A stretch of 64,000 bases of DNA from an uncultured Veillonellaceae bacterium (lineage in GTDB: Bacteria > Bacillota > Negativicutes > Veillonellales > Negativicoccaceae), in NCBI GenBank assembly GCA_947254705.1, contig CAMYCX010000001.1, forward strand, positions 2,616-66,615, written 5' to 3'. Positions 10,359 to 49,285 of this stretch are shown here, one piece after another. The position numbers and the translations under genes were made by a program. Below the pieces are notes generated by a model. That model ran no database searches, was not told the DNA's origin, and saw nothing but the letters and a program-made list of their open reading frames with translations. The number at the start of each line of letters is the position of its first letter. Position 1 is the stretch's first letter.

Positions 10359-10508
10359 TCCGGTTTTGCCGCCGCTACGCGACACAGTCTTGTCGTAACG
10401 ATGCCCGCGAAGCCCTTATTTTGACAAATATCGAAAAATGTTGTAAAGTAAAAGTGAAGATTCTCGATTCACTGCGACGGCAGTTTGTACAACAAAGAGG
10501 TGTTTATT

Positions 10509-11207
10509 ATGAAAATGAATATGTTACGCGGAGTTCTTATCGGCGCACTGCTCGCACAAGGCGCAGTCGCCGCCGTTGAAGCACACGGCACGGATGCCGC
10601 TCATCGGGCGGAAGTCTATACCCAACAGACGAAAGCCCATATGGCCAAAGCCCATGCAACAAAAGCACATGCACATCCGGCGGTTCCTGCCGAATTGAAA
10701 TCGTACCGTCATCTCGTCAAAGACTTGCGCGGCGGACAAGCCAAGGCACCGATTTGGATCGCCGCCAGCGATGTCAAATCGTACTATCTCGCACTGAATC
10801 AAATCGTTGCGGCCTACCCGCAAGATACCCTGGACCAATACCGTGCGACCGTTCGTGAAGTACCGACATCGTACTATGTACGTGACGTATTGATTCCCGC
10901 TCGTAAAGACGCCGGTCTTTCCGTCGACGGGTATCAGGACTATGCGTACTCGATGACGACCTATCAAATCGAAGTCGTCCGTCAGGCACAACCGCAACCG
11001 CGTAAATCGTCGCAATACGTCAAACACGTACCGACGGAATATCGCGTTGCCAAGATCAGCCAAAAAGACTATACGGCCGATCATCAGCTGCTCGGCGAAC
11101 AAACATGGAACGAATCGTTGGCCGTTGCCGCACCGGGCAGCGATGCCTACATTTTGGCGGCCGGCGTGGACCGTTACACCTATCGGTTCCGCCCGACAGG
11201 ACAATAA
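10509..11207 (+). CDS. secreted hypothetical protein with His-rich N-terminal repeats
   Basis: Signal peptide MKMNMLRGVLIGALLAQGAVAA. Repeated KAH motifs (HGTDAAHRAE...KAHMAKAHATKAHAHP). RBS AAAGAGGTG. A longer antisense ORF on the minus strand looks spurious. Confidence 0.6.
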   Translation: MKMNMLRGVLIGALLAQGAVAAVEAHGTDAAHRAEVYTQQTKAHMAKAHATKAHAHPAVPAELKSYRHLVKDLRGGQAKAPIWIAASDVKSYYLALNQIVAAYPQDTLDQYRATVREVPTSYYVRDVLIPARKDAGLSVDGYQDYAYSMTTYQIEVVRQAQPQPRKSSQYVKHVPTEYRVAKISQKDYTADHQLLGEQTWNESLAVAAPGSDAYILAAGVDRYTYRFRPTGQ

Positions 11208-11225
11208 CAGAAAGGAAGATCCAGA

Positions 11226-11564
11226 TTGAACCCGACGTACCAGACCTATTCTCAACTGTTCAAAGCATTGAGCGATGAAACACGATTGCGTATTATTGAT
11301 ATGCTTTCCTGCAGCGAGTTGTCCGCGTGTGACCTCTTGCAAAGCTTTTCGTTGTCTCAATCGACCTTGAGTTACCATATGAAAATATTGGTCGAACCAG
11401 GTCTTGTCAACGCCAGGCGTGACGGACTGTGGATGCGCTATTCCATCAATAACGAACGATTTGCGGAAATCTTGCAATTCCTGCCGCAACTCTATCAAGT
11501 GAAAGACGAGTGCGTCTGCCGGCAAATCAAGTATTGTCGCGAAGACGACTGCTGCGAAATGTAA
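11226..11564 (+). CDS. ArsR/SmtB family metal-sensing transcriptional regulator
   Basis: 'LSDETRLRIIDML' HTH start, 'ELSACDL' alpha3-type site, 'QSTLSYHMKIL' recognition helix. Cys-rich C-terminus CVCRQIKYCREDDCC. TTG start after AGGAAG. Confidence 0.75.
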   Translation: MNPTYQTYSQLFKALSDETRLRIIDMLSCSELSACDLLQSFSLSQSTLSYHMKILVEPGLVNARRDGLWMRYSINNERFAEILQFLPQLYQVKDECVCRQIKYCREDDCCEM

Positions 11565-13226: not shown

Positions 13227-13266
13227 CAAAAAGAAGCGTATACAATTGCTGTATACGCTTCTTTTA
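13227..13266. terminator. bidirectional rho-independent terminator between dcuC and the MATE gene
   Basis: Perfect 13-bp stem AGAAGCGTATACA / TGTATACGCTTCT flanked by A-run and T-run. Confidence 0.8.
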
Positions 13267-13268
13267 AT

Positions 13269-14618
13269 TCATTGTGCCGACAACTTTTTTTGTAACCATC
13301 TAAGTCGCATGTTATACAAAAATGCTGCAACAAACACACTTCCGATATTTCCAAACCAATATGCATACGGCCCCCAAGGCGTCACATATTCAAGAAAAAT
13401 TCCTCCGCCAATTCCTACGCCCCAATAGGTAATTAGCGCCACCCCCAATACAAACCGAACATCTTTGTAGCCGCGCAAAGCACCTTGAATCGGTACGCCA
13501 AAAGCATCCGCTAAATTAAAGCACATCGCCAACGGGATAAACGTGGAAATCAATGCCGCCAATCTGTCGTCTGATGTATAAATAGAAGCGACCCGGCTCA
13601 TCTCATAATAACACCACACAAAAAGAAATGCCGACACCGCAACCGTAAACAATTGTGCCAACCTTGCATACCGATATGCCTGCTGTATTTGCTTTCCGCC
13701 GAGCGAAAAACTACACAAAATCGTAGCCGCGATTCCCACTGACATCGGCAACGTATAAATTAATTCCGAAAAATTGTACGCTGCCTGATGCGCTGCAATA
13801 ATACTCGTTCCAAATTGTGTAATCAGTAATCCTACCACGGTAAAAGAACTAATTTCCAAAAAATTCGCCAACCCAATCGGTATACCAATCCGCAATTGAT
13901 CTCCACACAAACGCACGTTCACCGGATCCCATCGATGAAAGACTGCATACTCGCTAAACGGTCGTCGAGCGAACAATATACCGCTAAATATTACACAATT
14001 AAATGCATTAGAAACCGAAATTGCCAACCCTGTACCAGCGCCCCCCAGCTCCGGGAATCCGAAACGCCCGTAAATCAAACAATAGTTTAATAAAACATTT
14101 ACAACAAAACCCATGCTCATGACAACTAATGACATTTTCGTTTCACCGTGTGCATCAATAATGTTGCGAAATGTAACTGCCAAAAAAGTAGGAATGATTC
14201 CCCAACCAATGTAAAACAAAAATCTATTGGCAATTTCTTGTACCTGAGCATCCAACCCTAGTGCCTGCACAATAAACGGCAAAAGGAAAAAACAGCCGCC
14301 CATAACCAAAATGCCTATTATCCCTGCCACATATGCCGATTGCCGAATCATTTCAGGGATACCGTCTCGTCGCCCAAACCCCAACTTCTGTCCAATCAAA
14401 GGCGTAATTCCCGCAAATATCCCTGTAGCCGGCAGGAGTATCGGTAGCCATAAATTAACTCCTACCGATACTCCTGCCAAATCATATTCACTATGTTGCC
14501 CTGCCATTGCAGTGGAACAAAAGCTGCCTGCAATCATCATTACTTGTGTTAAAAAAATGGGAAACCAAATATTCCAGAACTGAATCCACATTCCCCATTT
14601 GCTGCTCATATGCCGCAT
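13269..14618 (-). CDS. MATE family efflux transporter
   Basis: 449-aa polytopic protein with NorM/MATE-like 12-TM profile. Last gene of the low-GC island operon. Confidence 0.8.
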   Translation of the reverse strand: MRHMSSKWGMWIQFWNIWFPIFLTQVMMIAGSFCSTAMAGQHSEYDLAGVSVGVNLWLPILLPATGIFAGITPLIGQKLGFGRRDGIPEMIRQSAYVAGIIGILVMGGCFFLLPFIVQALGLDAQVQEIANRFLFYIGWGIIPTFLAVTFRNIIDAHGETKMSLVVMSMGFVVNVLLNYCLIYGRFGFPELGGAGTGLAISVSNAFNCVIFSGILFARRPFSEYAVFHRWDPVNVRLCGDQLRIGIPIGLANFLEISSFTVVGLLITQFGTSIIAAHQAAYNFSELIYTLPMSVGIAATILCSFSLGGKQIQQAYRYARLAQLFTVAVSAFLFVWCYYEMSRVASIYTSDDRLAALISTFIPLAMCFNLADAFGVPIQGALRGYKDVRFVLGVALITYWGVGIGGGIFLEYVTPWGPYAYWFGNIGSVFVAAFLYNMRLRWLQKKLSAQ

Positions 14619-14637
14619 ACCAACCTCATATTCGACC

Positions 14638-15960
14638 TCAATCTATTACATGTCGCCGCAACCGATTTTTATCTACTGTTTTCAAATATAACATATATCC
14701 CAAGAAAAGCAGAAAAAATGCATCAAAAAGCGGTCGCAATCCTGCTGCATACACCGCATAGCAAGAATATAAGATTCCAAGCATCGTAAACACAGTCATT
14801 CTGTGTCTAGCAGACCATCCGACTTGCGCTTTTGCTAAAATTTTATCCAAAGACAAACAACAAATGATATACGGAAGAACATTGGTAATTACCGCTAAAT
14901 CAACAATTCGTTCAAATTGAGCAAACAAATTGGTATCTATTGTCATGAGTGCAAATCCCGATTGTATTGTCAATAAAATGATCATGCCCCAAACCGGTAC
15001 ACCATAGCGATTAAGTTTAGCAAAAACACGCGGATATGCTCCGGATTCACCGCATCCTTTGAACACCTGTGACATCGTAAATTGCCAACACAAAAGCGCT
15101 CCACAACAAGAAACGACCATCATTGTCATGATCACACGACCGATTCTACCATTAAACATCGACGAAAAAGCCAATCCGAACGGTGCATTTGAAGTCAATA
15201 ACTCAGCATTCGGAACAATTCCGGCCATAATATTTGTAGATAGAATATAAATCATAGCCACAAATAAAGTCCCCATAAATGTAGCCCTTGGCACATCTCT
15301 CTGAGGATTTTCAATGGACTCCATATTCGCTGCCGCTGATTCAAATCCCAAAAAGGTCCACAGTGTCAATACAATTGACTCGCTGGCTGCTTCAAAAACC
15401 GGTAACCGATTAGGATTCCATGCTTGGACATACAGATCAAAATCGAACCAGCACCAACCGACAACACTCATAAAAGCAACCGGTAAAATTGCTCCCCATA
15501 CCGTTACGGAACTGATTTTTCCTGTCCATCCGCTTCCAGCAAAATTAGCCATTCCGGCAATCCACAATAACGCGATCGTAGCAAATGCACCTTGCAATGG
15601 CGAAAAATTCCACTGCATCAACGTCTCAATATATCCTACTGCCGAAATAGCGATTGCCACAATACCGACAACTAATGAAATCGAGTAAGAAAAGTTTGTT
15701 AAATAATATCCTGCCAGTCCGAAACGATACGCCGCATATCCTCCCATGCCACCGCGGTGTCTGGAATACATCCCGCACTGCGCAAAAACATGCGCCAAAC
15801 ATAATGCTCCCAGTGCAGTTACCAACCATGACAAAATAGAGATTGTGCCTACTTGCGCCAACTTTGTCGGTAACATAATAATCCCTGCTCCCAACATATT
15901 CGCCGCGGTCAACATCGTTAATTGCCAAACATTCATTTTTTTTGCAGGTTTCCCAGTCAT
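14638..15960 (-). CDS. APC-family basic amino acid/polyamine antiporter (PotE/CadB-like)
   Basis: 440 aa; strong similarity throughout to E. coli PotE as recalled (GAGIIMLPTKLAQVGTISILSWLVTA..., GMGGY, AISAVGY, IVPNAEL). RBS GGGGAGGAAACA. Confidence 0.85.
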   Translation of the reverse strand: MTGKPAKKMNVWQLTMLTAANMLGAGIIMLPTKLAQVGTISILSWLVTALGALCLAHVFAQCGMYSRHRGGMGGYAAYRFGLAGYYLTNFSYSISLVVGIVAIAISAVGYIETLMQWNFSPLQGAFATIALLWIAGMANFAGSGWTGKISSVTVWGAILPVAFMSVVGWCWFDFDLYVQAWNPNRLPVFEAASESIVLTLWTFLGFESAAANMESIENPQRDVPRATFMGTLFVAMIYILSTNIMAGIVPNAELLTSNAPFGLAFSSMFNGRIGRVIMTMMVVSCCGALLCWQFTMSQVFKGCGESGAYPRVFAKLNRYGVPVWGMIILLTIQSGFALMTIDTNLFAQFERIVDLAVITNVLPYIICCLSLDKILAKAQVGWSARHRMTVFTMLGILYSCYAVYAAGLRPLFDAFFLLFLGYMLYLKTVDKNRLRRHVID

Positions 15961-16061
15961 TGTTTCCTCCCCTGTTGAGATAACCCGTTAATTATTGCAG
16001 AAAGGAAAAGAGGGACAAGGCATTTGCCTGTCCCCCACCCCTACTACAGAGAAATGCCCGA

Positions 16062-17456
16062 TCAGTACACGTCGTACTTAACCATATCCTCGTAAGTATC
16101 TTCCTTACGAATCAACTTCACTTCTCCTTCTTTCGTAATCAATACAACTCCCGTCCGAGGACGATTGTTATATACAGTTTGGCTTTCAATCGTATATGCA
16201 CCGGCGTCCAGGAATACCAGAATATCCTTCAGATTTGTTTTTTCCGGAAGCAAATATTCTTCTCCTTTAATGCCATAATGGTAATAATCTCCACCATCAC
16301 AAAGCGGACCTGCCAGTTTGAAATAATGATCATGCGACTGTCCAACCTGCGATGCATTGTAAACATAGAAGAACCAACCGTAATGTTGTGCATCCGACAA
16401 CACATTGTAACCGGCATCAATAAACTTCCAGTCCACATGACGTTCTACATTTCCGTTGACATCATAATTTGTTTTTCTCTTGTCTAAACATACTTCTGTC
16501 AACATCACCGCAGCAGAGCCGACAACTTTACGACCCGGTTCGAGACAAATTTCGATATCTTCACGCCATTTCTTTACTTCGGAAATGATTGCATCCGCAA
16601 AGTCTTGCGCAGTAATTCCCGGATACATATTGTCTTCCAAGGGATTTCCGTTTTCTTCATCATATTTATACGGAGTAGGAATACCGCCGCCGACATTGAT
16701 CAGCTCAAACTTATAATCCAATACTTTTTCCAAACGCATGGATTCTTCTACTAAAACCCGAGTTGCTTTACGGAATGGATCCGATTCCGGCACCTGATCC
16801 CCTACATGCATATGTAAACCTTTTAATTTTACATAAGGCATTTCCAAAATCCGCTTGCAAACACCTTCTGCCTGTTCCAAATCAATCCCTGATTTAGCAT
16901 GATACGCTGTCACCAGACCGGCATGCGTAGCGGAAGGCACGTTCGGTTCCACACGAACACATACGTTCGCGGTCTTTTTCAAGCGGCGCGAAATTTCATC
17001 GATCACGTCCAACTCATGTATACTGTCAACATTAATAAGATACAGCTCGTTGTCAATTGCAAATTCCAAATCTTCTGGTTTTTTAACCACACCGTTGAAA
17101 ACAATTTGATCGCCTTTGAAACCGATTTCCAAGCATTTTCTTACTTCATATAACGAGTTGGCTTCTGCGCATACGCCTGTTTTTTTGATGCTGCGCAAAA
17201 TTTCCATTACCGAACAAGCTTTTGACGCATAGAAAATCTTTGTATTCGGATACGATGCAAATGCATCCTTGATTTCCTGTAAATTCCGGTCAATTTCTTT
17301 TTCCGAATACACATACAGCGGCGTTCCGTATTGACGAGCGATGGCTTCCAAATCCGCTCCGTCAAAAAACAGCTTACCATCTTTTTCGGTAAAACGACGA
17401 TCGTTATTTACCAAATCCTTACGCAATCCGTTAAAACGTTCCAAAATTTGATCCAT
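16062..17456 (-). CDS. fold-III (alanine-racemase-fold) PLP-dependent decarboxylase, Orn/Lys/DAP decarboxylase family; possibly D-ornithine/D-lysine decarboxylase-like
   Basis: 464 aa. 'YASKAC' PLP-Lys motif, 'HMHVGDQV' (HIGSQ-like), '[17 protein letters not shown]', 'CDGGDYY' substrate-loop motif. Confidence 0.85.
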
Positions 17457-17473
17457 TATTCCCGCCTCCTTAA

Positions 17474-18586
17474 TTAGTCTTTTGAAATAAATTTTTTAAC
17501 CACACCGTTAGTCTGACATGCTGCAAGCAATCCGGTATAGTCAAGCTCAAACTCAATGTAATCTCCCAACGCATACGAGTGATCACAATCTTCGATATCT
17601 ACAATGGTGTGATCACTGGTTTGGCCAAGCACACTGATCTGATCATCACAGGGCGTACAGTTTTCAACCGGTACATCTTGACGCCCAAATGCCAATAACG
17701 CACGTTTGCGAGTTCCTCGATCCTCAAACTCTTTCTTTTGCAAAAATGCATCTACTCCCAATTCCCCTACAGGAACTGTCGGTTTGGCATTCAACTCAAT
17801 AATCTCCGCACGTAACACATACAAATCAGAGACTGCCTTATCAATCGGCTTTTTCGAATGATGGTATTGATCCAAATATTTCATATCCACATATTCGATA
17901 CCAAACTCATGCAATCCGCCAATCCGCAAATGATTCAACCCCGGATTCCAGACTCCTTTATCAATCAAATGATAGCTTGTACAGTTACCCGCAGAAAGTC
18001 GACTGATTTTTACGCCGGTTTTTTCCTGTATCCGTTGTGCCAATGCCACAAAATCATCACTATTCTTCACTGTCGGCATAACAGTCCCGTAACAGTTATA
18101 ATTTGTTCCCAAACCATACAACGTCAACGAGGGCGTCCGATCAATCAATGTCACCAAGCGACATATTTCATCTTCTTTTTCAAACCAAACGCCTTCCCGT
18201 AAATCACCCATATCCACCATCAGCAAAATTGCATGTTTTTTGTTTTGATGCGCCGCTTCTTCTGCCAGCGCTAAAATAACCTCCTCTTCTGAGTTCAAGC
18301 TGATGTCTGCATATTTCACTACATCCGGAATTTCACTCAAACAGGGACTGCGTAGTAAACATGTTGTGCAGCCGATGTCCCGAATCTTTTTCAGATTATA
18401 TACCCGAGATTCGGCAATGACCGAAATCCCGCCGTCATACACCGCCTTTGCCGTTTCAACACAACCATCAAAGACTTTATTGACCGCCATCACTTCCACG
18501 CCATGGGAAGCAAGCTCTTGTTTTTCTACTCTTGCATTATCTTCCAACTTACCCAAATCGATCACTAATTGAGGCTTATACATCAT
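17474..18586 (-). CDS. alanine-racemase-fold PLP enzyme, ornithine/lysine racemase-like (Orr/YhfX family)
   Basis: 370 aa. N-terminus '[14 protein letters not shown]...[40 protein letters not shown]' resembles ornithine racemase N-terminus (PLP-Lys in VNKVF). Overlaps upstream permease by 4 nt. Confidence 0.65.
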
Positions 18587-19998
18587 GCTTCTCCTTTCTT
18601 AGATAAAGCATTGCGCTTTTGCGCCCGTTTATATGTGTATTCAGAAATGAACAGCGCCAGGATAATACCGCCGATCATCTGTCCTAAGTACACACCGTAG
18701 TTCCCCAAATCAACTTGCGCCGGTGGAATGAAAACCAAGAACACTGCAAATGCAATTGAAGAAAATCCTAACAACGGCATCAAAATCGGCAATATCGTAC
18801 CCGGAATCTTAAACGAGCGATATACGTCCGGCTTATTCTTACGAAGCACCACATATGCGGCAAACATGAACAGATACGGAACAAAATAATCCAACGTCGT
18901 CAAAGCCGTTAATGTCCAATATGCTGCTGCCACAGATGGAGAAATAAATGTTGACAAACACAATACCGTCACGACAATCGCTTCTATTTTGATAGCATAT
19001 ACCGGAGTTTCATACTTCGGATCCAATGAACTGATTTTTTCTCCCAAAAGATTATCTTCACGGGATGCCTCTTGCAACATATAGATCGGTCCTACCAGCC
19101 ATGAATTTACCTGGCCCAACACCCCTATAAACATGCATGCCGCAATTACGGAAAGCAACCACGGTGCACCTAAGTATTCTCCGGCGGCTCCCATTGCTTG
19201 CATGATTCCGGTTACGATATTCGTTTCTTCTGCCGGATATAACGTATTAATAGCAAAGGTTCCCACCATATAAATCGAAACAATTACAATCGCCGATACT
19301 AACATTGCTCGCGGAAAATCATGTTGCGGATTTTTCGTTTGACCCGCAATCATAGCAGATACTTCCAGACCCGCAAACGCAAACATCATGCTGGACAAAA
19401 ATACTATATTATCCCATTCGGTCAGGTCAGGAATCCAGCTTTCAAAGCGTGAGTAATTCGTACTCATCGGCATTCCTGTTGCTAGCCAAATTCCGGCCAA
19501 CAACACGATGATTCCGGCAGGCAAGAACACACCGAACCAAGCGCTGACATTATTAATAATTTTTGTCCACTTCATCCCTCGCATATTCATAAATGCCAAA
19601 ATCCAGAAAATCACAATCGAAGTAATACCGATAAAACTTTGATTTTCCGACAATTCAGGAGAAATGACGAACGCAATCGCGGAAACCCCGAACTGTAGCA
19701 TTAAAGGGAAAAACAAAACGCACGAAAACAGAAAACAAATAACAATAAACCAACCGACTCGAGGCCCAAAGGCTTCTTTCACCCAAACAAAAATCCCGCC
19801 GTTCTTCGGCCACCCTGTTGCTAACTCACCGCACACCATTGCTAACGGGACAAACAGACACGCCGCCGCCAACACCCACAAAATCATAGATGATGCACCG
19901 TATACCGCAACATTAGGTATTTGGCGTAGACTCAAAATTGCAACGACATTCATTAATACAATGTCACGCAACCCGAGAAAATTTTTATTCGAACTCAT
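18583..19998 (-). CDS. APC-family amino acid antiporter (GadC-like)
   Basis: 471 aa, 12-TM; 'KEAFGPRVGWFIVICFLF' region resembles Glu:GABA antiporter family. First gene of the low-GC operon. Confidence 0.8.
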   Translation of the reverse strand: MSSNKNFLGLRDIVLMNVVAILSLRQIPNVAVYGASSMILWVLAAACLFVPLAMVCGELATGWPKNGGIFVWVKEAFGPRVGWFIVICFLFSCVLFFPLMLQFGVSAIAFVISPELSENQSFIGITSIVIFWILAFMNMRGMKWTKIINNVSAWFGVFLPAGIIVLLAGIWLATGMPMSTNYSRFESWIPDLTEWDNIVFLSSMMFAFAGLEVSAMIAGQTKNPQHDFPRAMLVSAIVIVSIYMVGTFAINTLYPAEETNIVTGIMQAMGAAGEYLGAPWLLSVIAACMFIGVLGQVNSWLVGPIYMLQEASREDNLLGEKISSLDPKYETPVYAIKIEAIVVTVLCLSTFISPSVAAAYWTLTALTTLDYFVPYLFMFAAYVVLRKNKPDVYRSFKIPGTILPILMPLLGFSSIAFAVFLVFIPPAQVDLGNYGVYLGQMIGGIILALFISEYTYKRAQKRNALSKKGEA

Positions 19999-19999
19999 G

Positions 20000-20250
20000 T
20001 CACCAACTTCCTCTCCGTCAAAACTGTAACGATATATTTTCGTTAACTATAATGACTTATACTATTGTTTACTGCCTAGGCTAAAATGATTATACTCCTC
20101 CCCGATATATAATGCAATACTTTTATCAAAAAAATTTATTAAAAAACATTTCACAAGTGATGTTATTACTATTTGTTAACAAAAATTAAAAAACGGTTAT
20201 CAAACTTAATAAAATTTACTTATTCTCATTACAAATATTATTACAATGCG
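20000..20250 (-). promoter_or_regulatory. AT-rich promoter/regulatory region upstream of the low-GC antiporter-racemase-decarboxylase operon
   Basis: About 250 nt of >75% A+T with multiple TTGACA/TATAAT-like hexamers (e.g. TTGTTAACAAAAATTAAAAAA). No ORFs. Confidence 0.5.
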
Positions 20251-20265
20251 CTCATCATCTGTAAA

Positions 20266-20308
20266 CGACAACCCCCCCTTGGCTCGGGTCATCTTTCGAG
20301 CCAAGGGA
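20266..20308. terminator. hairpin (terminator or insulator) between the Cys-Asp/polyK gene and the AT-rich region
   Basis: Perfect 11-bp stem CCCTTGGCTCG / CGAGCCAAGGG, 10-nt loop, followed by TTTTTCTTT on the plus strand. Confidence 0.55.
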
Positions 20309-20324
20309 GTTTTTCTTTACCGCC

Positions 20325-20864
20325 TTATTTTTTCTTCTTTTTCTTGTCTTTTTTTGTTTTCTTCGCTTTTTTCTTTTCTTTCTTTTTATCTTTCTTCTTC
20401 GCGTTCACCATGTCGTGATGATCGATGCAGCAATCGCAGTCGCAATCACAGTCTTCCTCACGTTCGCCATGGTGATCGTCGCAACAGTCGCAGTCGCAAT
20501 CGCAATCTTCCTCGCAGCCTTCGTCCGTTCCGTATTCGTGAAGGAACGTATCGTACGGAAGCTCTTCAATCTCGTCGTCAGCGTCCTCCGTATCTCCGTA
20601 CAATTCATCCTGCAATTCATCATACAACTGAATGATTTCATCGACCCGATCCCCCAGTTCGCGATAGCGTTCCATCCGCATGCGGATCTGTTCTTCCGCA
20701 AAAGAATACGCCCGAACCGTTTCTTCTTGTCCGTCCGTAACGGTTTCTTTTTCCGCCCGCAAATCATCGAGCATGTCCTGCCCGTCCAGAAGCTCAACAC
20801 AAACTTCATGTAACAATTCACTGATCGTCAGGCTGTACGTATCAATCGGTAACGGTTGTTTCAT
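20325..20864 (-). CDS. hypothetical acidic protein with tandem Cys-Asp/His repeats and C-terminal polylysine tail
   Basis: Strong RBS AAGGAGG 5 nt before ATG (MKQPLPID...). Helical acidic N-half, then EEDCDCDCDCCDDHHGER / EEDCDCDCDCCIDHHDMV repeats, ending KKKDKKKEKKKAKKTKKDKKKKKK. The plus-strand antisense ORF is an F/R-rich mirror and lacks an RBS. Confidence 0.5.
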   Translation of the reverse strand: MKQPLPIDTYSLTISELLHEVCVELLDGQDMLDDLRAEKETVTDGQEETVRAYSFAEEQIRMRMERYRELGDRVDEIIQLYDELQDELYGDTEDADDEIEELPYDTFLHEYGTDEGCEEDCDCDCDCCDDHHGEREEDCDCDCDCCIDHHDMVNAKKKDKKKEKKKAKKTKKDKKKKKK

Positions 20865-21003: not shown

Positions 21004-22365
21004 ATGGATAGCGATCACCCCGGGTGGCAACTGATCTTATTATTTGTACTGATTTTGGCGAACGGTGTATTTTCCGCCACGGAAATTGCCGTCGTCAGTG
21101 CCAAAAAACTACGCTTGCAACGGGAAGCGGACAACGGCTCCGCCGCCGCACAGGCCGCATTGGATATTGCGCAAAACCCGAACCGTCTGTTCTCGACCAT
21201 TCAGATCGGCATTACCGCGATCGGTGTCATTACGGGGATGATCGGGGCCTCGACGCTGGCCGAACCGTTGGCCGAGCAAATTGCCCGTATCGACGGACTG
21301 ACGGCATACGCACAGGCACTCAGCTTATTGATTATTATGTCGGGGGTCACGTATTTTACTTTGATTCTCGGTGAGTTGGTACCGAAACGGATTGCCATCA
21401 ATGCGCCGGAAGCGGTAACGATGGCGGTTGCGCGACCGATGTCGCTGTTTGCCAGGATCAATACGCCGATCATCTGGTTCATGTCCGCATCGACGGGGCT
21501 GGTACTGCGGATACTCGGTATTCGGATTGTCGATGAACAGCCGGTCAGTGAAGAAGAAATTCGTTTTCTGCTGCGTCAGGGCGCACAGCTGGGAACATTT
21601 GACGCGAAAGAACCGGAGTTGATCGACCGTATTTTCCGCTTGAATGATATTCCGGCGGAAAATATCATGACCGCGCGTCCGCAACTGCTATGGCTCGACT
21701 TGGCCACGGACGAAACGGAGCTGGAGCAACTCATTATCGAAACACGTCATACCCGATTGCCGGTCGGCTATGAATCATTGGACGATTTCCGCGGTCTGGT
21801 ACGGGTACAGGATTTGCTCGTCGACCGTCTGCGATATCCGCAACGGTCATGGAACGATTTGATTCGCCGTCGCACGCAGACACCGCTCTACATTCCGGAA
21901 ACGCTGACACTGAACAAAGCGCTTGATTTATTCCGCATTCACAGTGCCCACGAAGCCATTATCCTGGATGAGTACGGCGCGCCGGAAGGCTTGATTACAC
22001 TCAACGATATTATGGAAGAAATCATCGGAACGATTCCCGCCAGTGTCCATGAGCGTCTGGCCGAACGCAACCGAATTGTGCGTCGATCCGCCGATTCGTG
22101 GTTAATTGACGGTCTGCTGCCAATTGAAGAATTCAAGCAATGTTTCCAAATTCACACCTTACTGCCGAAAGAAGGCGAGGATTATTACAAAACCCTCGGC
22201 GGGTTTGTCATCTTCCTGTGCGGCTATCTGCCGAAAGAGGCGGATACGATTACCTATGAGGACTTTACCTTTGAAGTGGTCGACACGGACAACTTCCGTA
22301 TCGACAAGGTGCTGGTTACACGAACACCGCCGCCTCCGCAAGAAACGACGGAAGAAGAGGATTGA
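21004..22365 (+). CDS. HlyC/CorC family transporter (CNNM + CBS pair + CorC_HlyC)
   Basis: N-terminal DUF21/CNNM TM domain (GVFSATEIAVVSAKKLRL), CBS region, C-terminal transporter-associated domain. RBS AGAGGAG. The ORF track's longer N-terminal extension is unlikely to be real. Confidence 0.85.
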   Translation: MDSDHPGWQLILLFVLILANGVFSATEIAVVSAKKLRLQREADNGSAAAQAALDIAQNPNRLFSTIQIGITAIGVITGMIGASTLAEPLAEQIARIDGLTAYAQALSLLIIMSGVTYFTLILGELVPKRIAINAPEAVTMAVARPMSLFARINTPIIWFMSASTGLVLRILGIRIVDEQPVSEEEIRFLLRQGAQLGTFDAKEPELIDRIFRLNDIPAENIMTARPQLLWLDLATDETELEQLIIETRHTRLPVGYESLDDFRGLVRVQDLLVDRLRYPQRSWNDLIRRRTQTPLYIPETLTLNKALDLFRIHSAHEAIILDEYGAPEGLITLNDIMEEIIGTIPASVHERLAERNRIVRRSADSWLIDGLLPIEEFKQCFQIHTLLPKEGEDYYKTLGGFVIFLCGYLPKEADTITYEDFTFEVVDTDNFRIDKVLVTRTPPPPQETTEEED

Positions 22366-28528: not shown

Positions 28529-30484
<1,956 letters not shown>

Positions 30485-30593
30485 TTATACTACAAAATCA
30501 TAAAATTAACAAAATTTGCACTTTATACGCATTTTATATCAACTAATTACTTCCCAGATAACCGCGTTCATTTTTTCGCATTTTTAGGCCTAT

Positions 30594-31457
30594 TTAGTAA
30601 TTTTGCGATTCATCCGTCGGTTTCTTTCTGTTCAATTTGTTAATCAAATTCTCCTTGTGCGCAACGGTCAACTTATCTCCGTCCAGGCGGGTTAGCAATC
30701 GTACCAACAGCCATTGTTCTTCGTCCGTTTCCTGCCGGTGCCAAACCCGGTCCAAGGTCCGATGAATCAAGTAATGCCGAGCTTCTTCGTATTCTTTCTC
30801 GAGTACCGGCAACGTGCGGCGCACTTCGTCATACTCCGCGGCCGGATGCCGAACGAGAAATTGCAATAATTGTCGATGTTGTTCCTGTTGTAAACGGGCC
30901 CGACAACGATCGCAAATCCGGTCTTTACAATCCGTCAGCGCCTGACAATATTCACACGGTTGCCAACCCGCCCCGAGACGGGCTTGGTCCAACTGCAGTT
31001 GCCGTCGACGTAATTGACCGATCGCCGTTCGCAATTCCGGTATGGGAATATCCTCACATTGCGTCGCCACCTCTTCTTCCTGATCGGGTGTCAATGACGG
31101 CAAGGGTTCTTCCTTCTCTATCGACGAGAAACGAACTGCCGACGATACCGGCATTTGTCCAGCCTTGAATTCAATTTCACTGACGACCGTCTCTCCCGCC
31201 ATATCATTCAGCTTTTGAATCAGCTTTCTTTTCTGCATGAACAATTCCTGCATCCAGGCGGAATTTTCCGTATAGATCACCCATTTTCCGTCGTCGCGCA
31301 CGACACCGACAATCGAATGAGAAGACAGTACCGCACCGACGGTATCTCTCCATAACCGTCGTCCGTTTTCCAAGCGACCGCGCGGCGTATCGGACAACTG
31401 TTTCATCAATTCGCCGATAATGTGACCGGTATCTTCCCACTTACTCATGTTCATCAC
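30594..31457 (-). CDS. DUF721/DciA-like protein with C-terminal zinc-ribbon-containing extension
   Basis: N-terminal about 100 aa fit DUF721 (GAVLSSHSIVGVVRDDGKWVIYTENSAWMQELFMQKRKLIQKLN). C-terminal about 180 aa contain CEYCQALTDCKDRICDRCRA. Sits between recF and gyrB like yaaB/remB in Bacillus. Confidence 0.7.
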   Translation of the reverse strand: MMNMSKWEDTGHIIGELMKQLSDTPRGRLENGRRLWRDTVGAVLSSHSIVGVVRDDGKWVIYTENSAWMQELFMQKRKLIQKLNDMAGETVVSEIEFKAGQMPVSSAVRFSSIEKEEPLPSLTPDQEEEVATQCEDIPIPELRTAIGQLRRRQLQLDQARLGAGWQPCEYCQALTDCKDRICDRCRARLQQEQHRQLLQFLVRHPAAEYDEVRRTLPVLEKEYEEARHYLIHRTLDRVWHRQETDEEQWLLVRLLTRLDGDKLTVAHKENLINKLNRKKPTDESQNY

Positions 31458-32514
31458 CGTCCAACTTCATGTATTGCACGTCTCCTGTCAACTCCTGCGG
31501 TATGTCCGTACCTGTCATGATCATCTGTATCCGATGCGTGTGAATCCAATGTAAAAATGCAGTCCGGCGGTCACCGTCCAATTCACTTAATACATCATCA
31601 AGCAATAAAATCGGCGACTCGCCTGTTTGCTCCTGTAAAAAATCAACTTCACACAGTTTCAGCGCCAATATCGCCAAACGCTGTTCCCCTTGCGAACCGT
31701 ATTGTGCAACATCCCATGTTTCCCGCAATATCGACCAATCGCCCCGATGCGGACCGACGGAAGTATATCCGTAACGGCTGTCCCGCTCACGCGTCTGTGC
31801 CAACAAAGTACGGTACAATTCCGCGCTACAGTCGTCATCCTTGGTATACAGACGGGTATAAACCAATTCCAAATTAATATCGGCGGCACTGATCTCACTG
31901 CCGATAGTTCGTAAGCGACGATTCCATTCTTTCATCGAACGGATCCGTTCCGCCGTAATGTATGCCGCCTGCTGTGCCAGTTGCTCATCCCACCCGTAAG
32001 CACTGCTTTCTTCTCCTGTTTTCAAGCAACGGTTTCGTTGTGCCAAAACCCGGTTATACCGTAATAATGCATCATAATATAACGGATTCACCCGAGACAA
32101 CGATAAATCCAAAAATCGCCGGCGCTGCTGCGGACTGCCTTTGACAAGTTGAATGTCATCCGGCCCGAAAAAGACCGTTTGTAATGTTTCAACCAATTCT
32201 TTTTGCCTGACCGGCGTATCATTCAACATCATTTCTTTACGTTGCTGCCGATAGATTTTGATTTTCACTCGTTGTGCCACGTCACGATGCACAAAATCGA
32301 CATTGACCGCCGCACTTTCCTGTGCATGCGAAATCACCACGGTATCCCGATTGGTCCGCGGTGATTTTCCGACCGATGCCATATATAACGCTTCCAAAAC
32401 GGAGGTTTTTCCACCGCCGTTCGGACCGTGAATAAATGTCATCGGACCGTCAAACGTAAATGTTTGCTTTTTATATTTACGAAAATTGACGACATGCAAC
32501 GAATTAATCTTCAT
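31441..32514 (-). CDS. recF: DNA replication and repair protein RecF
   Basis: 'FIHGPNGGGKTSVLEALY' Walker A and C-terminal 'LLLDDVLSELD' Walker B/signature. Confidence 0.9.
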   Translation of the reverse strand: MKINSLHVVNFRKYKKQTFTFDGPMTFIHGPNGGGKTSVLEALYMASVGKSPRTNRDTVVISHAQESAAVNVDFVHRDVAQRVKIKIYRQQRKEMMLNDTPVRQKELVETLQTVFFGPDDIQLVKGSPQQRRRFLDLSLSRVNPLYYDALLRYNRVLAQRNRCLKTGEESSAYGWDEQLAQQAAYITAERIRSMKEWNRRLRTIGSEISAADINLELVYTRLYTKDDDCSAELYRTLLAQTRERDSRYGYTSVGPHRGDWSILRETWDVAQYGSQGEQRLAILALKLCEVDFLQEQTGESPILLLDDVLSELDGDRRTAFLHWIHTHRIQMIMTGTDIPQELTGDVQYMKLDGDEHE

Positions 32515-32731
32515 CAGAGGCCCGGACTAACAATAAACTCCCGACATCGGGAATATCAATCCGATCTCCCGCCGTTAATTTTTTCCGAATAACGGTACAC
32601 GGTGCTCCGTTCACCCATATATCACCGTCCAAAATCAACTGTTTCGCCGCACCGCCGGAGCCGACAATTCCCTCATACTTCAGCAACTGGTCCAGTGCAA
32701 TTGTCGGTGTTGTAATCTCTACGCGTTTCAT
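32504..32731 (-). CDS. yaaA: S4-domain RNA-binding protein YaaA/RlbA
   Basis: 75-aa S4-like protein between dnaN and recF, the canonical Firmicutes position. Confidence 0.8.
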   Translation of the reverse strand: MKRVEITTPTIALDQLLKYEGIVGSGGAAKQLILDGDIWVNGAPCTVIRKKLTAGDRIDIPDVGSLLLVRASDED

Positions 32732-33837
32732 CAGTTTCCTCTCATCGGCGTAACGATATAACGATACAATTCATCCTGTTCTTGTTCTACCAACATCGGC
32801 CCGTTCGACAACATATGCAATGTGACCGTATCCCCGTAGGAATGTTTTAAAATATCGAGTAAATAAAAACAGTTAAATACGATTTCCAGCGTATCTCCTT
32901 CATATTCACACGGAATGGTTTCTTCCATGCTGCCGTATTCCGTACTCATCACACTTGTTTCCAACTGATTGTCGCCCCATTTCAAAGTAACGGTGCGATA
33001 GGTCATATTCCGTGCAATTAACGAGGCCCGTTCCAATGCCGACGTCAATGCCCGCCGATCAATTTTTGCTTTGGCTTGGAATGACGACGGGAAAACCCGC
33101 TGATAATCCGGAAACTCGCCTTCAATCAACGACGCGACAAAGTACACATTGGCAAAGGAAAAAGCCACTTTTGAACGGAACCAATGAATCGTTACCGGAA
33201 TAACATCTTCCGTCGGCAACAACCGAATCAAATCCGACCATACTTTTTCCGGAATAACCAACGAAATCGGTCGGGCAATCTCTTGCGCAAGATCCACTTC
33301 ACGACAAGCCAGACGATGTGTATCCGTTGCCACCATGCGTGCACAACGACCGTCCGCTTCCAATAAAATTCCCGTAAAGATGGCACGTTGATTATCTCCG
33401 CCAACCGCAAAACGAGTCTGATTATACATGTCTTTTAATTGATCACTCGGTAACGTTGCGGTTTGCGTTTGATCCAATGTTTCCAAACGAGGAAATTCCG
33501 AGGCCATACCCATGACCAAATCATTTTCACTTTGTCCGCAAGAAACGGTTACCACTTTTTCTTTGGCAGTATGGATCGTCACCGTATCGGCATTGAATTT
33601 TTTTACCAAATCAATCAGATACGGTGCGCGAATCACGACATCTCCGTTTTCTACTACGGTTGCCGGTACTTCGACATGAATTCCGATCAGATAGTCCGTT
33701 GCTTCAATTTCCAACACTTGATCGTGCGCGGAAAAGAAAATACCTAAATCATCATTATTTGCAATTTTAGATGCGGCGGCACGACTGACTGTATCCAATG
33801 CGCGCTGTAATTGTGCCGTTTCAATTTGAATATGCAT
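32731..33837 (-). CDS. dnaN: DNA polymerase III subunit beta (sliding clamp)
   Basis: 368 aa, three-domain clamp profile, immediately downstream of dnaA. Confidence 0.9.
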   Translation of the reverse strand: MHIQIETAQLQRALDTVSRAAASKIANNDDLGIFFSAHDQVLEIEATDYLIGIHVEVPATVVENGDVVIRAPYLIDLVKKFNADTVTIHTAKEKVVTVSCGQSENDLVMGMASEFPRLETLDQTQTATLPSDQLKDMYNQTRFAVGGDNQRAIFTGILLEADGRCARMVATDTHRLACREVDLAQEIARPISLVIPEKVWSDLIRLLPTEDVIPVTIHWFRSKVAFSFANVYFVASLIEGEFPDYQRVFPSSFQAKAKIDRRALTSALERASLIARNMTYRTVTLKWGDNQLETSVMSTEYGSMEETIPCEYEGDTLEIVFNCFYLLDILKHSYGDTVTLHMLSNGPMLVEQEQDELYRYIVTPMRGN

Positions 33838-34060
33838 ATTGTCCTCCTGTAATTCGACTGAATAAAATGAAAAGCGTTTAAAAGAGCAGTAGTACTAGTA
33901 GGCTCGGTGGATATGTTGAAAACCGTGAAAGGTATTTGCCGGTGGCCGTGTGAATGGCGCGGATAACTTCGTGGATAACCGTCGTGACTTATTCACCTTT
34001 TTCACCGAAAACGGAAAAGATTACGTACAAATCCGTTTATCCACATATTATTCACTGATT
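33838..34060. promoter_or_regulatory. oriC segment between dnaA and dnaN (DnaA-box cluster plus AT-rich tract)
   Basis: Perfect TTATCCACA at 34037-34045, cGTGGATAA at 33970-33978, further 2-mismatch boxes (GGTGGATAT, GCGGATAAC), and an AT-rich stretch next to dnaA's 3' end. Confidence 0.75.
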
Positions 34061-35605
34061 TTATACCTCTTTTTCCACACCGAGCATAGTTAGAATTTGG
34101 TTGATTTCCTGTTTCGTTTGCGGATCGGTATTCATTTTTTTTGTGATTTTTTCATATGCATAGATGATCGTGGTGTGATCTCTGCTGAAAAAAGAACCGA
34201 TTTGTGTAAATGACCAGTCAAGCAATTCCCGACACAGATACATGGCGACTTGTCGAGCCGTTGCAATGTTTTTGGGACGGGATTTGCCGAGAATTTTTCT
34301 ACGGTCCACTTTATAGAAAACGGCAATTTCTCCGATAATCATATTCGGATCCAAGGGTTGCCGTTTATTTTTCGGCAACAAATCCGATAAATATTCTTGG
34401 GCCTGTGCCAATGAAAGCGGTTCATCCGTTGTGTGTCCCGGTTGTTCAATAGCATGATAGGTCAACAGGCGGTTGAAAGCCTTTTCGACATCACGCATAT
34501 TTTGATAAAAATGTTCCGCGACAAATTGAATGATGTCCGGGCTCAATGGCAGATGTTCCGTCAGCGCCATTTGTTGCAGATAAGCCGAGCGGATTTCAAT
34601 ATTCGGCGGTTTGATTTCCACAACGAGTCCAGAACTGAACCGACTGGTCAGTCGGTTTTCGATTTCTTCAATGTCTTCCGGTAAACGGTCGCACGTCATG
34701 ACGATCTGTTTACTGTTATTTAACAGTTCGTTGAAGGTATGGAAAAATTCTTCCTGCGTGCCGTCTTTTTTCCCGAAAAATTGGACATCGTCAATCAATA
34801 AATAGTCTACGTTCCGATACTTTTCCCTGAATTGTTGGTTCAGACTGATATCACGCTTACTCAGCGAAGAAATAAAATCGTTGGTAAATTGTTCACTGGT
34901 TAAAAATAATACTTTCTTTTCCGGCGTGTGGGTACGGACATAGTTACAAATGGCGTGCATCAAGTGTGTTTTGCCTAATCCCGATTTGCCGTAAATAAAA
35001 AAGGGATTTTGTTGTTGTGCGGGAGATTTAGCGACCGCTTGAGCACTGGCAAAGGCCATTCGATTCGGTGTACCGATAATAAAATTATCAAAAGTGTATT
35101 CCGGATTAATCGGAATACCGGTCTGCAACGGCGGCTTGGACACGGAAGGTATCGGAGGTGTATCGATGGTCGGTATGTTTGGCTGTACGGAAGGCTTTTT
35201 TAGGGGAATCGGTTTCGTTGGCACTTCCGGCAGACGCGCCAAATATTTTTTTCGTTCCGCTTCCGTAAAAATCGATGTCGAGGAGACGGATGTTAACGGT
35301 ACGGAAGGGTCTTCCTCCACCGTGTTTGTCGATGTTGATATTGCCGTTTCCGTGTCGGTCGGAGTTAACAGGGTAATGGCCAGCGGTGATCCGTTCATTT
35401 CCCGAACGACGGTTTCAATGTCTTGCAAAAATGTCTGTTCCACCCAGATTTTATGAAAGGGTTTGGCCACCTGCAATGTCAGTGTTGTATCGTTGATATG
35501 CAAGGGGATCACGTTGGTTCGTAACCAATCAACGGATTCGGGGGCGATACGAAGCGCTAATTGGCTCAGTACAATTTTCCAAAAGTCAATCACATTTGGT
35601 AACAT
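34061..35605 (-). CDS. dnaA: chromosomal replication initiator protein DnaA
   Basis: AAA+ 'GKSGLGKTHLMHAI' Walker A, 'LLIDDVQFF' Walker B, C-terminal HTH 'IATARQVAMYLCRELL'. Start MLPNVIDFW by RBS AAGGAG 5 nt upstream. The ORF track's longer N-terminus is unlikely. Confidence 0.9.
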   Translation of the reverse strand: MLPNVIDFWKIVLSQLALRIAPESVDWLRTNVIPLHINDTTLTLQVAKPFHKIWVEQTFLQDIETVVREMNGSPLAITLLTPTDTETAISTSTNTVEEDPSVPLTSVSSTSIFTEAERKKYLARLPEVPTKPIPLKKPSVQPNIPTIDTPPIPSVSKPPLQTGIPINPEYTFDNFIIGTPNRMAFASAQAVAKSPAQQQNPFFIYGKSGLGKTHLMHAICNYVRTHTPEKKVLFLTSEQFTNDFISSLSKRDISLNQQFREKYRNVDYLLIDDVQFFGKKDGTQEEFFHTFNELLNNSKQIVMTCDRLPEDIEEIENRLTSRFSSGLVVEIKPPNIEIRSAYLQQMALTEHLPLSPDIIQFVAEHFYQNMRDVEKAFNRLLTYHAIEQPGHTTDEPLSLAQAQEYLSDLLPKNKRQPLDPNMIIGEIAVFYKVDRRKILGKSRPKNIATARQVAMYLCRELLDWSFTQIGSFFSRDHTTIIYAYEKITKKMNTDPQTKQEINQILTMLGVEKEV

Positions 35606-35790
35606 ATACACTCCTTGCGTATGTGAATAGATAGAATAAATCAAAAAAGTAGGTGTAAATCTTGTATTGGCGTCCTGTGGAGAGCGGGGATAACTATGTG
35701 GATAAGTAGTACAGAAATATTGTAACATACTTATTCAATGAAAGAAAGACAGTCTCTTGACTTGTTTACGGGAAGGGAGTATCGACCAAA
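35606..35790. promoter_or_regulatory. dnaA upstream region with DnaA boxes (second oriC segment / dnaA autoregulatory region)
   Basis: Perfect TGTGGATAA at 35697-35705, plus cGGGGATAA and TGTGGAgAg variants nearby. Confidence 0.7.
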
Positions 35791-35819
35791 GAAAAACCCC
35801 CTTTGTCTGACAAAGGGGG
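35787..35819 (-). terminator. rho-independent terminator of brnQ
   Basis: CCCCCTTTGTC / GACAAAGGGGG perfect stem. On the minus strand it is followed by TTTTTCTTT. Confidence 0.8.
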
Positions 35820-35825
35820 AAAGAA

Positions 35826-37148: not shown

Positions 37149-37182
37149 AGTAAATACCCCCCTATACAAGTTAGTTCTCACT

Positions 37183-37211
37183 ATTATAGTGGAACGGCAT
37201 TGCGTTTTCAA
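37183..37211 (-). promoter_or_regulatory. brnQ promoter TTGAAA-17-TATAAT
   Basis: Consensus hexamers about 30 nt upstream of the brnQ RBS. No T-box-like leader present. Confidence 0.6.
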
Positions 37212-37339
37212 TAGAAAAGAAAAAATATTTAAAAAAACGGCGCAATTGAAAATGGACAATACCGATTTATACAATTAATACAGCAAGTTGCGCGCGAAAG
37301 CGAATTCGGAACGGAATTTGTCGCAGCGTACGGAAAAGT

Positions 37340-37368
37340 TTGACATGCAGGCCGTTTTTCAATATAAT
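37340..37368 (+). promoter_or_regulatory. rpmH promoter TTGACA-17-TATAAT
   Basis: Perfect consensus -35 and -10 hexamers about 65 nt upstream of rpmH. Confidence 0.7.
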
Positions 37369-37436
37369 AACTTTGTTATGAGTGAATGTCCGATTCTAAC
37401 GGAAAACCCGTTAAATATAGTAAGGAGGTGGGCTAG

Positions 37437-37571
37437 ATGAAACGTACATACCAACCGAACGTATTGTGGCGCAAACGTACGCACGGATTTCGCGAACGTA
37501 TGAAAACCAAAGGCGGCCGCATGGTGCTCAAAAGAAGAAGATTAAAAGGTAGAAAAAAACTGTCCGCCTAA
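37437..37571 (+). CDS. rpmH: 50S ribosomal protein L34
   Basis: [44 protein letters not shown], 44 aa. RBS TAAGGAGGTG. Too short for the ORF track. Confidence 0.9.
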
Positions 37572-37628
37572 ACGAGGCGACGCGAGAACTTGGCCTCGGC
37601 CAAGTTCTTATTGTCTAAGGTGAAAAGT

Positions 37629-37976
37629 ATGAATGATCTCAAAAAAGAGTATCGCATACGCGAAAATCGTGAGTTTCGGTATGTGTATCGCCGCGGCAAA
37701 GTATGTGTGTCGTCGCGGGCGGTGCTGTATGTCCTGCCGCAAGCGGGCCAATCGACACGTATCGGTTTTGTCACCGGCAAAAAAATCGGTTCGGCAGTCA
37801 AACGTAATCGAGCCCGTCGCTTGATGCGCGAGGTATACCGTTTGCATCGCCACCGATTGCAACAGGGGTATTTGTTGGTATTGGTCGGTCGCAGTCCGTT
37901 GACGCGGTCGACGTATGCCGAAGCGGAAAAAGATATTGTCGGCTTGTGGAAACGAGCCCGCGTGATAAAGCGATGA
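37629..37976 (+). CDS. rnpA: ribonuclease P protein component
   Basis: Basic 115-aa protein '[19 protein letters not shown]...[10 protein letters not shown]' directly after rpmH. Start ATG 37629 after AAGGTGA. Confidence 0.85.
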
Positions 37977-38203: not shown

Positions 38204-38214
38204 GGAGGAGTGCA

Positions 38215-49236: not shown

Positions 49237-49253
49237 GTGATTTCTCCGTTTCT

Positions 49254-49285
49254 GCAATAAAAGCAGCGGCCGCGTGAGCCGCTGT
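49254..49285 (-). terminator. terminator of the GltD-like oxidoreductase gene
   Basis: CAGCGGC / GCCGCTG stem followed on the minus strand by TTTTATT. Confidence 0.55.

Follow-up and report, generated by a model that had tools for sequence, protein, structure and literature searches.

What is a compact block of five genes of low G+C content doing close to the replication origin of a Negativicute, and from where did it come? The question is raised by a 64,000-nucleotide stretch of DNA (hereafter the window, meaning this stretch at its full length) from contig CAMYCX010000001.1 of assembly GCA_947254705.1, which belongs to an uncultured Negativicoccus-related Veillonellales bacterium and in which the block occupies positions 13269-19998. 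The answer that we favour, and that we hold to be rather probable as a whole, is that the block is a rearranged and transporter-augmented DokD/OrnR operon, obtained long ago from an organism of lower G+C content, for which we propose a role in an exchange cycle. The other contigs and loci that were compared with the window are designated by L-numbers (L001, L013, L014, L127 and so on), and the coordinates of the features are collected in Table 1.

The block is made up of five consecutive open reading frames (ORFs) on the minus strand which, read from 5' to 3', encode an APC-superfamily transporter, an ornithine racemase of the OrnR type (gene orr), the decarboxylase DokD, a PotE-type antiporter and a MATE-family efflux transporter. 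DokD scores 850 bits with the NCBIfam model NF052544 (cut-off 700), aligns over its full length, with 807 bits, to the crystal structure of the Salmonella enzyme DOKDC (PDB 6n2h), and is about 72-73% identical to Salmonella DokD according to tblastn. OrnR is 72% identical to its orthologue of Salmonella diarizonae, and Lys-36 and Cys-164, the catalytic roles of which have been described (PMC13397332), are invariant in an alignment of nine sequences; with the NCBIfam model of the clostridial Orr it reaches 357 bits and misses the cut-off of 480, as expected for the DokD-linked clade. From the identity of about 72% to characterised enzymes, a racemase activity of OrnR and a D-specific decarboxylase activity of DokD can be predicted. 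The APC transporter is distantly GadC-like and scores under every NCBIfam equivalog cut-off; its counterpart, encoded between dokD and orr, is 66-69% identical to it in the loci of enterobacteria, Gilliamella and Sutterella, and the transporters of the Photobacterium, Syntrophomonas and Clostridium operons are 52-61% identical to it. The genes for DokD, OrnR and the APC transporter are referred to below as the trio. Directly downstream of dokD, behind a spacer of 101 nt, follows potE, the product of which scores 587 bits with NF007938/PRK10655 (cut-off 409), and then the gene of the MATE transporter, which scores 243 bits with TIGR00797 (cut-off 147). The MATE coding sequence contains, at 14431-14478, a perfect inverted repeat of 17 bp around a loop of 14 nt.

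In base composition the block stands apart from its surroundings. Its G+C content of 0.427 is the minimum among all 6.7-kb segments of the window, the second-lowest segment being the replication origin (0.458), and in 1-kb windows the G+C content is 0.41-0.44 across about 13.5-21 kb and 0.50-0.60 on either side. The low-GC island of about 7 kb announced by the original prediction is therefore real, as the GC3 and tetranucleotide values given below also show, but the high-GC chromosome with flanks of 55-66% in which it was said to lie is not: the whole window has 52% G+C, the flanks of the block have 51-60%, and the host genome is mid-GC. The G+C content at third codon positions (GC3) is 0.38-0.46 in the five genes of the block and 0.58-0.69 in the adjacent genes. 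When GC-normalised tetranucleotide z-scores were compared between each segment and the rest of the window, the block gave the lowest correlation (r = 0.50), other segments giving values of 0.57-0.85. The trio follows the composition of its host elsewhere: in 17 other hosts its GC3 lies within about 0.1 of that of the host, over a range from 0.17 (Clostridium) to 0.88 (a Sutterella). By contrast, its deficit relative to the host is about 0.17 in the window and at least 0.18 in L014, a contig from one other Veillonellales species, and these are the two largest deficits. The block is thus out of compositional equilibrium with its host.

Using a pattern scan for dokD in one genome per species (185,579 species), we collected 68 loci, mostly from Gilliamella and Enterobacterales, the other hosts including Sutterella, Aquitalea, Syntrophomonas, Clostridium and Desulfobacterium. 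A single one of the 68 comes from the Veillonellales, namely L014, which is labelled as a Veillonellaceae metagenome-assembled genome (MAG) and encodes a DokD 94% identical to that of the window. L014 carries all five genes of the block in the same order and linked to dcuC, with amino-acid identities to the window of 94, 92, 94, 85 and 79% in gene order and of 96% for DcuC. The same block is also present, at the same locus, in metagenome contigs with an identical DokD or DcuC, which come from at least seven sequencing runs or assemblies. In Negativicoccus succinicivorans, the CNNM gene, the RND pump, the amino-acid permease and the gyrB side are syntenic with the window and there is no block beside the CNNM gene; the dcuC side of that genome is not syntenic with the window. 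The nearest relative of the trio is L013, a 4-kb contig (ENA ERZ14212814) of 32% G+C with the same gene order as the window, which shares with it 82-88% protein identity and 74% nucleotide identity and has a trio GC3 of 0.19-0.21; a search of metagenomes for longer low-GC contigs resembling L013 returned none above 75% identity. Horizontal acquisition is supported by these results, because the composition of the block is atypical, the trio is nearly absent from other Negativicutes, N. succinicivorans has no block at the syntenic locus and the relative in L013 has 32% G+C.

Which organism might have been the donor? The best named matches of DokD are gammaproteobacterial (Pantoea, Gilliamella, Edwardsiella and Vibrio, 71-75%); the flanking CNNM protein is 67% identical to that of N. 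succinicivorans and about 49% identical to Dialister proteins. The DokD matches, together with the 34-39% G+C of the Gilliamella loci, could suggest that the whole operon was transferred recently, either from an enterobacterium or from one of the low-GC Gammaproteobacteria, Gilliamella for example. We regard this explanation as largely refuted and its chances as very slight. In a neighbour-joining tree of the concatenated trio (23 taxa, 200 bootstraps), the window groups with L014 and L013 in 200/200 bootstraps, and their clade is located outside the proteobacterial clade; a grouping with Gilliamella appears in 0/200. At the main split, this clade falls with the Clostridia (188/200), but it is separate from other Bacillota, a position at odds with the species tree. 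The order of the genes is transporter-orr-dokD in the window, L014 and L013, but dokD-transporter-orr in all proteobacterial, Syntrophomonas and Clostridium loci in which all three genes occur. Tree position and permuted order together do not indicate the Gammaproteobacteria as donor. Moreover, the proteins differ by about 25-33% from any proteobacterial copy, PotE and MATE are missing from the gammaproteobacterial loci, the affinity of PotE is to Veillonellales, and the block is common to two lineages between which synonymous divergence is saturated. The best named BLAST matches, here gammaproteobacterial, can therefore mislead about the donor, which we infer to have been a low-GC organism resembling L013.

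The age of the block can be judged by comparison of the window with L014. Synonymous divergence (dS) is at least 1.2 in the genes of the block and 1.0-3.7 in the flanking host genes, saturated in both alike, and the ratios of nonsynonymous (dN) to synonymous divergence are 0.023 for the APC transporter, 0.028 for DokD, 0.055 for PotE and 0.069 for MATE; for orr, dS is saturated and dN is 0.058. Saturated dS and low dN/dS indicate that the block is old, functional and vertically inherited at least since the common ancestor of the window and L014. The transfer would thus have occurred at or before the split of these two lineages, with vertical descent next to dcuC thereafter, and the G+C content of the block would since have drifted part-way toward that of the host. 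A two-state amelioration model gives a rough fit with a starting GC3 of about 0.20-0.25, a value with a large uncertainty due to the saturated dS. The block thus offers a clean case of an old transfer in which base composition still lags behind that of the host in two sister lineages.

The original prediction had suggested the horizontal acquisition of a complete module; acquisition is retained here, but the transfer was not recent and a single origin of the module does not hold. PotE and MATE lie outside the canonical DokD/OrnR operon. The nearest relatives of PotE are stand-alone genes (64-69% identity) beside TerC and TonB-receptor genes, one of them in GCA_900155405.1 (L084), followed by those of a Veillonellaceae MAG (L086, 63%) and of Veillonella, and then by those of Enterobacterales at about 52%. 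The stand-alone copies have a host-like GC3 of 0.60-0.70 and the potE of the block one of 0.38, which argues that the latter is not a recent native copy and has itself resided for some time in a genome of low G+C. The trio and PotE, which differ in phylogenetic affinity and are separated by a hairpin, make the block a mosaic. Most simply, the five genes were probably brought together in the low-GC donor, which may have been a Negativicute too, and were then acquired as one set; on this view, the hairpin would stand where the trio once had its 3' end.

Several results weigh against an acquisition, and some of them would suit a native cluster, the low G+C of which would be due to local heterogeneity or to selection, for example on expression level or through a near-origin position. 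The core genes of the origin region have a GC3 of 0.43-0.54, unusually low for this genome (dnaN 0.43, dnaA 0.46, jag 0.47, recF 0.49, gyrB 0.53); as these native replication genes overlap with the block, GC3 alone is not diagnostic of foreign origin. The origin segment is also the second most atypical of the window in its tetranucleotide signature (r = 0.57). A synonymous-codon likelihood test against pooled native usage was marginal (p = 0.06); this test is confounded by amino-acid composition, and the GC3 and tetranucleotide tests were used instead. The block has been stably inherited in two lineages under purifying selection and bears no mobility signatures: no integrase or transposase is encoded among the ORFs of the window, where the sole tRNA is at 50959-51031, and no genuine plasmid copies of the block were found, the only plasmid matches being three 'plasmid' records of about 500 kb from single-cell assemblies of Salmonella, which are predicted to be non-mobilizable and are not informative. 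A clean empty site was not found, the promoter-side junction being rearranged in the relatives L008 and L014; a search for it through CNNM homologues of 89% identity met contigs that were too short or in which the junction was rearranged. No block-free strains were found through the exact DcuC protein, every contig with this protein having the block. With dS saturated, the GC3 deficit of about 0.2 is somewhat above what simple neutral amelioration would leave, unless the donor was very AT-rich, and the placement of the clade relative to the Clostridia could be due to long-branch attraction. We nevertheless consider a native origin to be quite improbable: a native cluster does not account for a DokD found in only one other Veillonellales species among those scanned and absent from the syntenic locus of N. 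succinicivorans, for the same genes matching the GC3 of their hosts elsewhere, for the nearest relative lying on a contig of 32% G+C, or for the normal, high GC3 of the stand-alone PotE relatives in related genomes. Acquisition from a lower-GC organism remains the reading that we prefer.

The junctions themselves differ between relatives. In L014, a two-gene OpuA-type glycine-betaine ABC transporter with a host-like GC3 of 0.75-0.80 is situated between MATE and dcuC (L014:14260-16967), and its absence from the window indicates an insertion or a deletion at the 3' boundary of the block. On the promoter side of the block, L014 (L014:1-7100) has homologues of window positions 48077-54018 and, in inverted orientation, a homologue of the ADP-ribosylglycohydrolase gene (54473-55273 in the window). 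In L008, the small gene and the CNNM gene adjoin a homologue of the gene at 53399-54373 of the window (L008:1-254). As a result of such rearrangements around the origin, the promoter-side junction is not conserved, while the block has kept its link to dcuC. Insertion scars in the form of direct or inverted repeats at the flanks were considered and rejected, only short AT-rich or chance-level matches being present; the inverted repeat I10, for instance, has a core of 11 nt, and chance alone should yield about eight pairs of this kind in 8 kb.

Table 1. Position and description of the features of the block and of its surroundings in the window
Feature	Position	Strand	Description
APC-superfamily transporter, STM2359 type	18583-19998	-	First gene of the block; 471 amino acids; PF13520; GC3 0.46
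OrnR-type ornithine racemase	17474-18586	-	369-370 amino acids; GC3 0.41; alignment to Salmonella orthologue
DokD, fold-III D-ornithine/D-lysine decarboxylase dependent on pyridoxal phosphate (PLP)	16062-17456	-	464 amino acids; NF052544; GC3 0.40
PotE-type putrescine-ornithine antiporter	14638-15960	-	440 amino acids; NF007938/PRK10655; GC3 0.38
MATE-family efflux transporter	13269-14618	-	Last gene of the block; 449 amino acids; TIGR00797, PF01554; GC3 0.42
Perfect hairpin with 16-bp stem	13229..13265		A-run on one side, T-run on the other; between convergent dcuC (+) and MATE (-)
G+C-rich hairpin followed by U-rich tail	16010..16036	-	In the dokD-potE spacer; folding energy (dG) -29.3 kcal/mol, z -3.5
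Candidate promoter and short leader	19999..20117	-	-35 TTGCAT (20117 to 20112), 17-nt spacer, -10 TATAAT (20094 to 20089)
Very AT-rich region	20118..20275	-	Upstream of the candidate promoter; holds an alternative promoter-like site
Hairpin with 13-bp stem	20276..20307	-	Directly after the stop codon of the small gene; dG -29.7 kcal/mol, z -3.9
Small gene	20325-20864	-	179 amino acids, no Pfam family; divergent from the CNNM/PaeA-like gene; missed by the original prediction
Origin region	28529-39788		gyrB, DciA-domain gene, recF, dnaN, dnaA, branched-chain amino-acid transporter, jag

How might the block be expressed? It had been described as a single operon of five minus-strand genes with strong terminators at both ends, a very AT-rich leader and self-contained regulation. 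This description is right about the genes, the strand and the approximate identities, and hairpins do occur at both positions. The one between dcuC and MATE, an inverted repeat with 100% complementarity, has a folding energy of -21.8 kcal/mol (z -4.8) on one strand and of -21.5 kcal/mol (z -4.7) on the other (z-scores of hairpins and leaders are for folding energy against shuffled controls) and is probably a bidirectional intrinsic terminator that forms the 3' end of the block transcript. At the opposite end, the hairpin lies upstream of the block promoter and therefore bounds the small neighbouring gene and not the block; it is a boundary feature outside the block transcript, which probably ends the transcript of the small gene and shields the block from read-through. 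The hairpin in the dokD-potE spacer is kept in L014 with a modified stem and may act as a partial terminator or attenuator; alternatively, it could be left over from the 3' end that the trio originally had. With so strong a hairpin between dokD and potE, a single operon is not assured and the five genes may be expressed unevenly.

Comparison of the leaders of the window and of L014 identified two elements as the best conserved upstream of the block, the hexamer TATAAT and an 8-bp palindrome, GCCTAGGC, at 20074-20081, which begins 7 nt past TATAAT and is located at about +1. As judged from these sequences, the TATAAT site is likely to be the block promoter and GCCTAGGC may be an operator; downstream of the palindrome come a leader of about 84 nt and a GGAG ribosome-binding site. 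The alternative promoter-like site (TTTACA, 17 nt, tgAATAAT; 20265 to 20237) has no obvious counterpart in L014. The leader region is indeed AT-rich, but a riboswitch or structured leader was rejected, the fold z-scores being +0.09 (89 nt) and +1.57 (241 nt), and Rfam gave no match of the leader at gathering score and only chance-level matches at E-values up to 5.

In Salmonella, the STM2360-2356 operon is sigma-54-dependent, is paired with the enhancer-binding protein STM2361 and shows a 100-fold induction by a promiscuous activator (PMC3844500, PMC4987338). A sigma-54 promoter of this kind was rejected for the block: TGGCA-N6-TTGC does not occur in 19999-20330, even with one mismatch. Genes for sigma-54 activators are present at the loci L041, L088-L090 and L127, and that of L041 (Salmonella diarizonae) was confirmed as a divergent PAS/sigma-54 activator gene. 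By contrast, neither a regulator nor a sigma-54 activator gene was found among the window ORFs in or adjoining the block. The idea of self-contained regulation must therefore be abandoned: with no regulator in the block and no -24/-12 motif in the leader, the block must be controlled by a factor whose gene lies elsewhere. Expression would probably start at a housekeeping-type (sigma-70/sigma-A-like) promoter with the conserved palindrome.

What the five genes may do together is suggested by the enzymes and transporters that they encode. L-ornithine would be imported and then racemised by OrnR to D-ornithine, DokD would decarboxylate D-ornithine to putrescine with the consumption of one proton, and PotE would exchange internal putrescine for external ornithine; such a cycle would alkalinise the cytoplasm and/or build a proton-motive force, in addition to supplying putrescine. 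We put forward tentatively, as a possibility that still falls somewhat short of being probable, that the D-ornithine route of the block is an ornithine/putrescine exchange cycle which gives an asaccharolytic Negativicute, related to the asaccharolytic Negativicoccus, a proton-motive force or protection against acid, as a fold-III and racemase-dependent functional analogue of SpeF-PotE. According to the biochemical work on the DokD/OrnR pathway of Salmonella, OrnR acts on ornithine and not on lysine, and the pathway ends in putrescine; what it is for is still stated as unknown (PMC13397332). All dokD-orr loci with enough flanking sequence carry at least one APC-superfamily permease. In the metagenome locus L127, dokD-orr is followed by a PotE equivalog (601 bits) that is 44% identical to the PotE of the window, and Sutterella loci contain dokD, an APC transporter gene, orr, a permease gene and a MATE gene, the product of the latter being 27-30% identical to that of the window. 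Owing to these low identities, the recruitments look independent, and the independent recruitment of the same classes of transporter points to a functional link. If the proposal is true, the repeated independent recruitment of PotE and MATE to dokD-orr in unrelated lineages would be a comparative-genomic sign of an exchange-cycle role.

Against this role it has to be said that PotE stays under the stricter TIGR04299 cut-off (528 vs 560 bits), that the APC transporter and MATE are placed at the level of family, and that a biosynthetic role has been deemed likely in Salmonella, with no evidence of acid induction there (PMC13397332). The last point suggests another explanation, in which genes and transfer are the same but the role is biosynthetic or detoxifying, the cell making putrescine to meet its own polyamine demand, or scavenging and disposing of D-ornithine or D-lysine from outside; the transporters would then be simple importers and exporters and not parts of a coupled cycle. 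The family name and the PDB entries of DokD indicate that it accepts D-lysine in addition to D-ornithine, and a MATE efflux pump would suit the disposal of a cationic product. However, biosynthesis requires neither import of a substrate nor export of a product, whereas the operon always has one or two APC-superfamily permeases and dokD-orr has gained a dedicated exchanger of the PotE type on two independent occasions. The racemase, with its specificity for ornithine and not lysine (PMC13397332), in turn makes an imported L-isomer the likely feedstock. For these reasons we think the biosynthetic or detoxifying role unlikely, though less so than either of the alternative origins discussed above, and keep the exchange cycle as our proposal.

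Among the neighbouring genes, the CNNM/CBS/CorC gene at 21004-22365, which starts at 21004 and not at 20680, has as its best NCBIfam match the polyamine exporter PaeA (319 bits, cut-off 500 not reached). That such a gene adjoins a block producing putrescine may be fortuitous, since the two are not neighbours in L014. The small gene that diverges from it is called in L001, L003 and L005 with a length of 161-179 amino acids according to the strain, and the pairing with the CNNM gene is found again in the relatives L007 and L008 (80-81% amino-acid identity); N. succinicivorans (L010-L012) has at this position a longer protein without a strong family match. The product of the small gene is Cys/Asp-rich, with an acidic N-terminal part, a Lys-rich C-terminal tail and two repeats of a CDCDC(D)CC...DHH motif (DNA repeat 20416-20513), and may bind metal or polyamines as a partner of the CNNM exporter.

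On the far side of these genes is the origin region, with the DciA-domain gene at 30594-31457 and dnaA at 34061-35728. The cumulative GC skew has its minimum near 33.5-34 kb and, together with dnaA, dnaN, recF and gyrB, locates the block about 15-20 kb from the origin of replication (oriC), on the leading strand. Upstream of dcuC (10485-11564; L002, L091, L092), a protein without family is called at 232, 254 or 259 amino acids, and an ArsR/HTH_5 regulator of 112 amino acids (11226-11564) is called only in some contigs of the same species.

The window shows the DokD/OrnR pathway outside the Proteobacteria and the Clostridia, without sigma-54 control and physically coupled to a putrescine-ornithine antiporter, and it provides a testable idea for the role of this pathway. 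Beyond the hypothesis on the role and the caution about donors, this is ordinary metabolic gene transfer.

Compared with known systems, the block is closest in its core to the STM2360-2356 operon of Salmonella Typhimurium, which encodes DOKDC/DokD, the STM2359 transporter, OrnR (STM2358), the STM2357 permease and UbiX, with STM2361 as activator. Both have orthologous DokD (about 72-73%), OrnR (72%) and APC transporter (67%), and both combine two PLP fold-III enzymes with two APC-superfamily permeases (PMC13397332). All three core genes of the DokD/OrnR operon are thus present in the window, whereas gene order, second permease and sigma-54 control differ: the transporter comes first and dokD third, the second permease is of the PotE type (PF13520) and not of PF00324, and a sigma-70-like -10 element with a conserved palindrome takes the place of the sigma-54 motif and activator. 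A MATE pump is present instead of ubiX, and the host is a Negativicute and not a proteobacterium. The Sutterella loci (for example that of S. wadsworthensis, L052) have the same five functional classes in another gene order, and L127 has dokD, orr and the PotE equivalog but, unlike the window, keeps a sigma-54 activator. With the clostridial Orr of ornithine fermentation (oraSE/ord), the OrnR of the window shares the class of enzyme and the catalytic cysteine (PMC13397332), but it belongs to the DokD-linked clade, and the genes next to it in the window include none for D-ornithine aminomutase, dehydrogenase or thiolase.

The block also resembles SpeF-PotE (and CadBA, AdiAC and GadBC) in having a putrescine-forming ornithine decarboxylase beside an exchanger of the PotE family. 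In classical decarboxylase/antiporter cycles, a proton is consumed and a more positively charged product is exported, which serves acid resistance or the proton-motive force, and the net chemistry predicted for the block is the same. SpeF is a fold-I enzyme that uses L-ornithine, whereas the DokD of the window is predicted to be a fold-III enzyme for the D-isomer, so that a step of racemisation would be needed, and the block adds to the pair a second APC transporter and a MATE pump. In its predicted chemistry the block works like the SpeF-PotE class but is not a member of it; it is the known DokD/OrnR operon in a rearranged form which, mobility signatures excepted, has the composition and the distribution of a genomic island.

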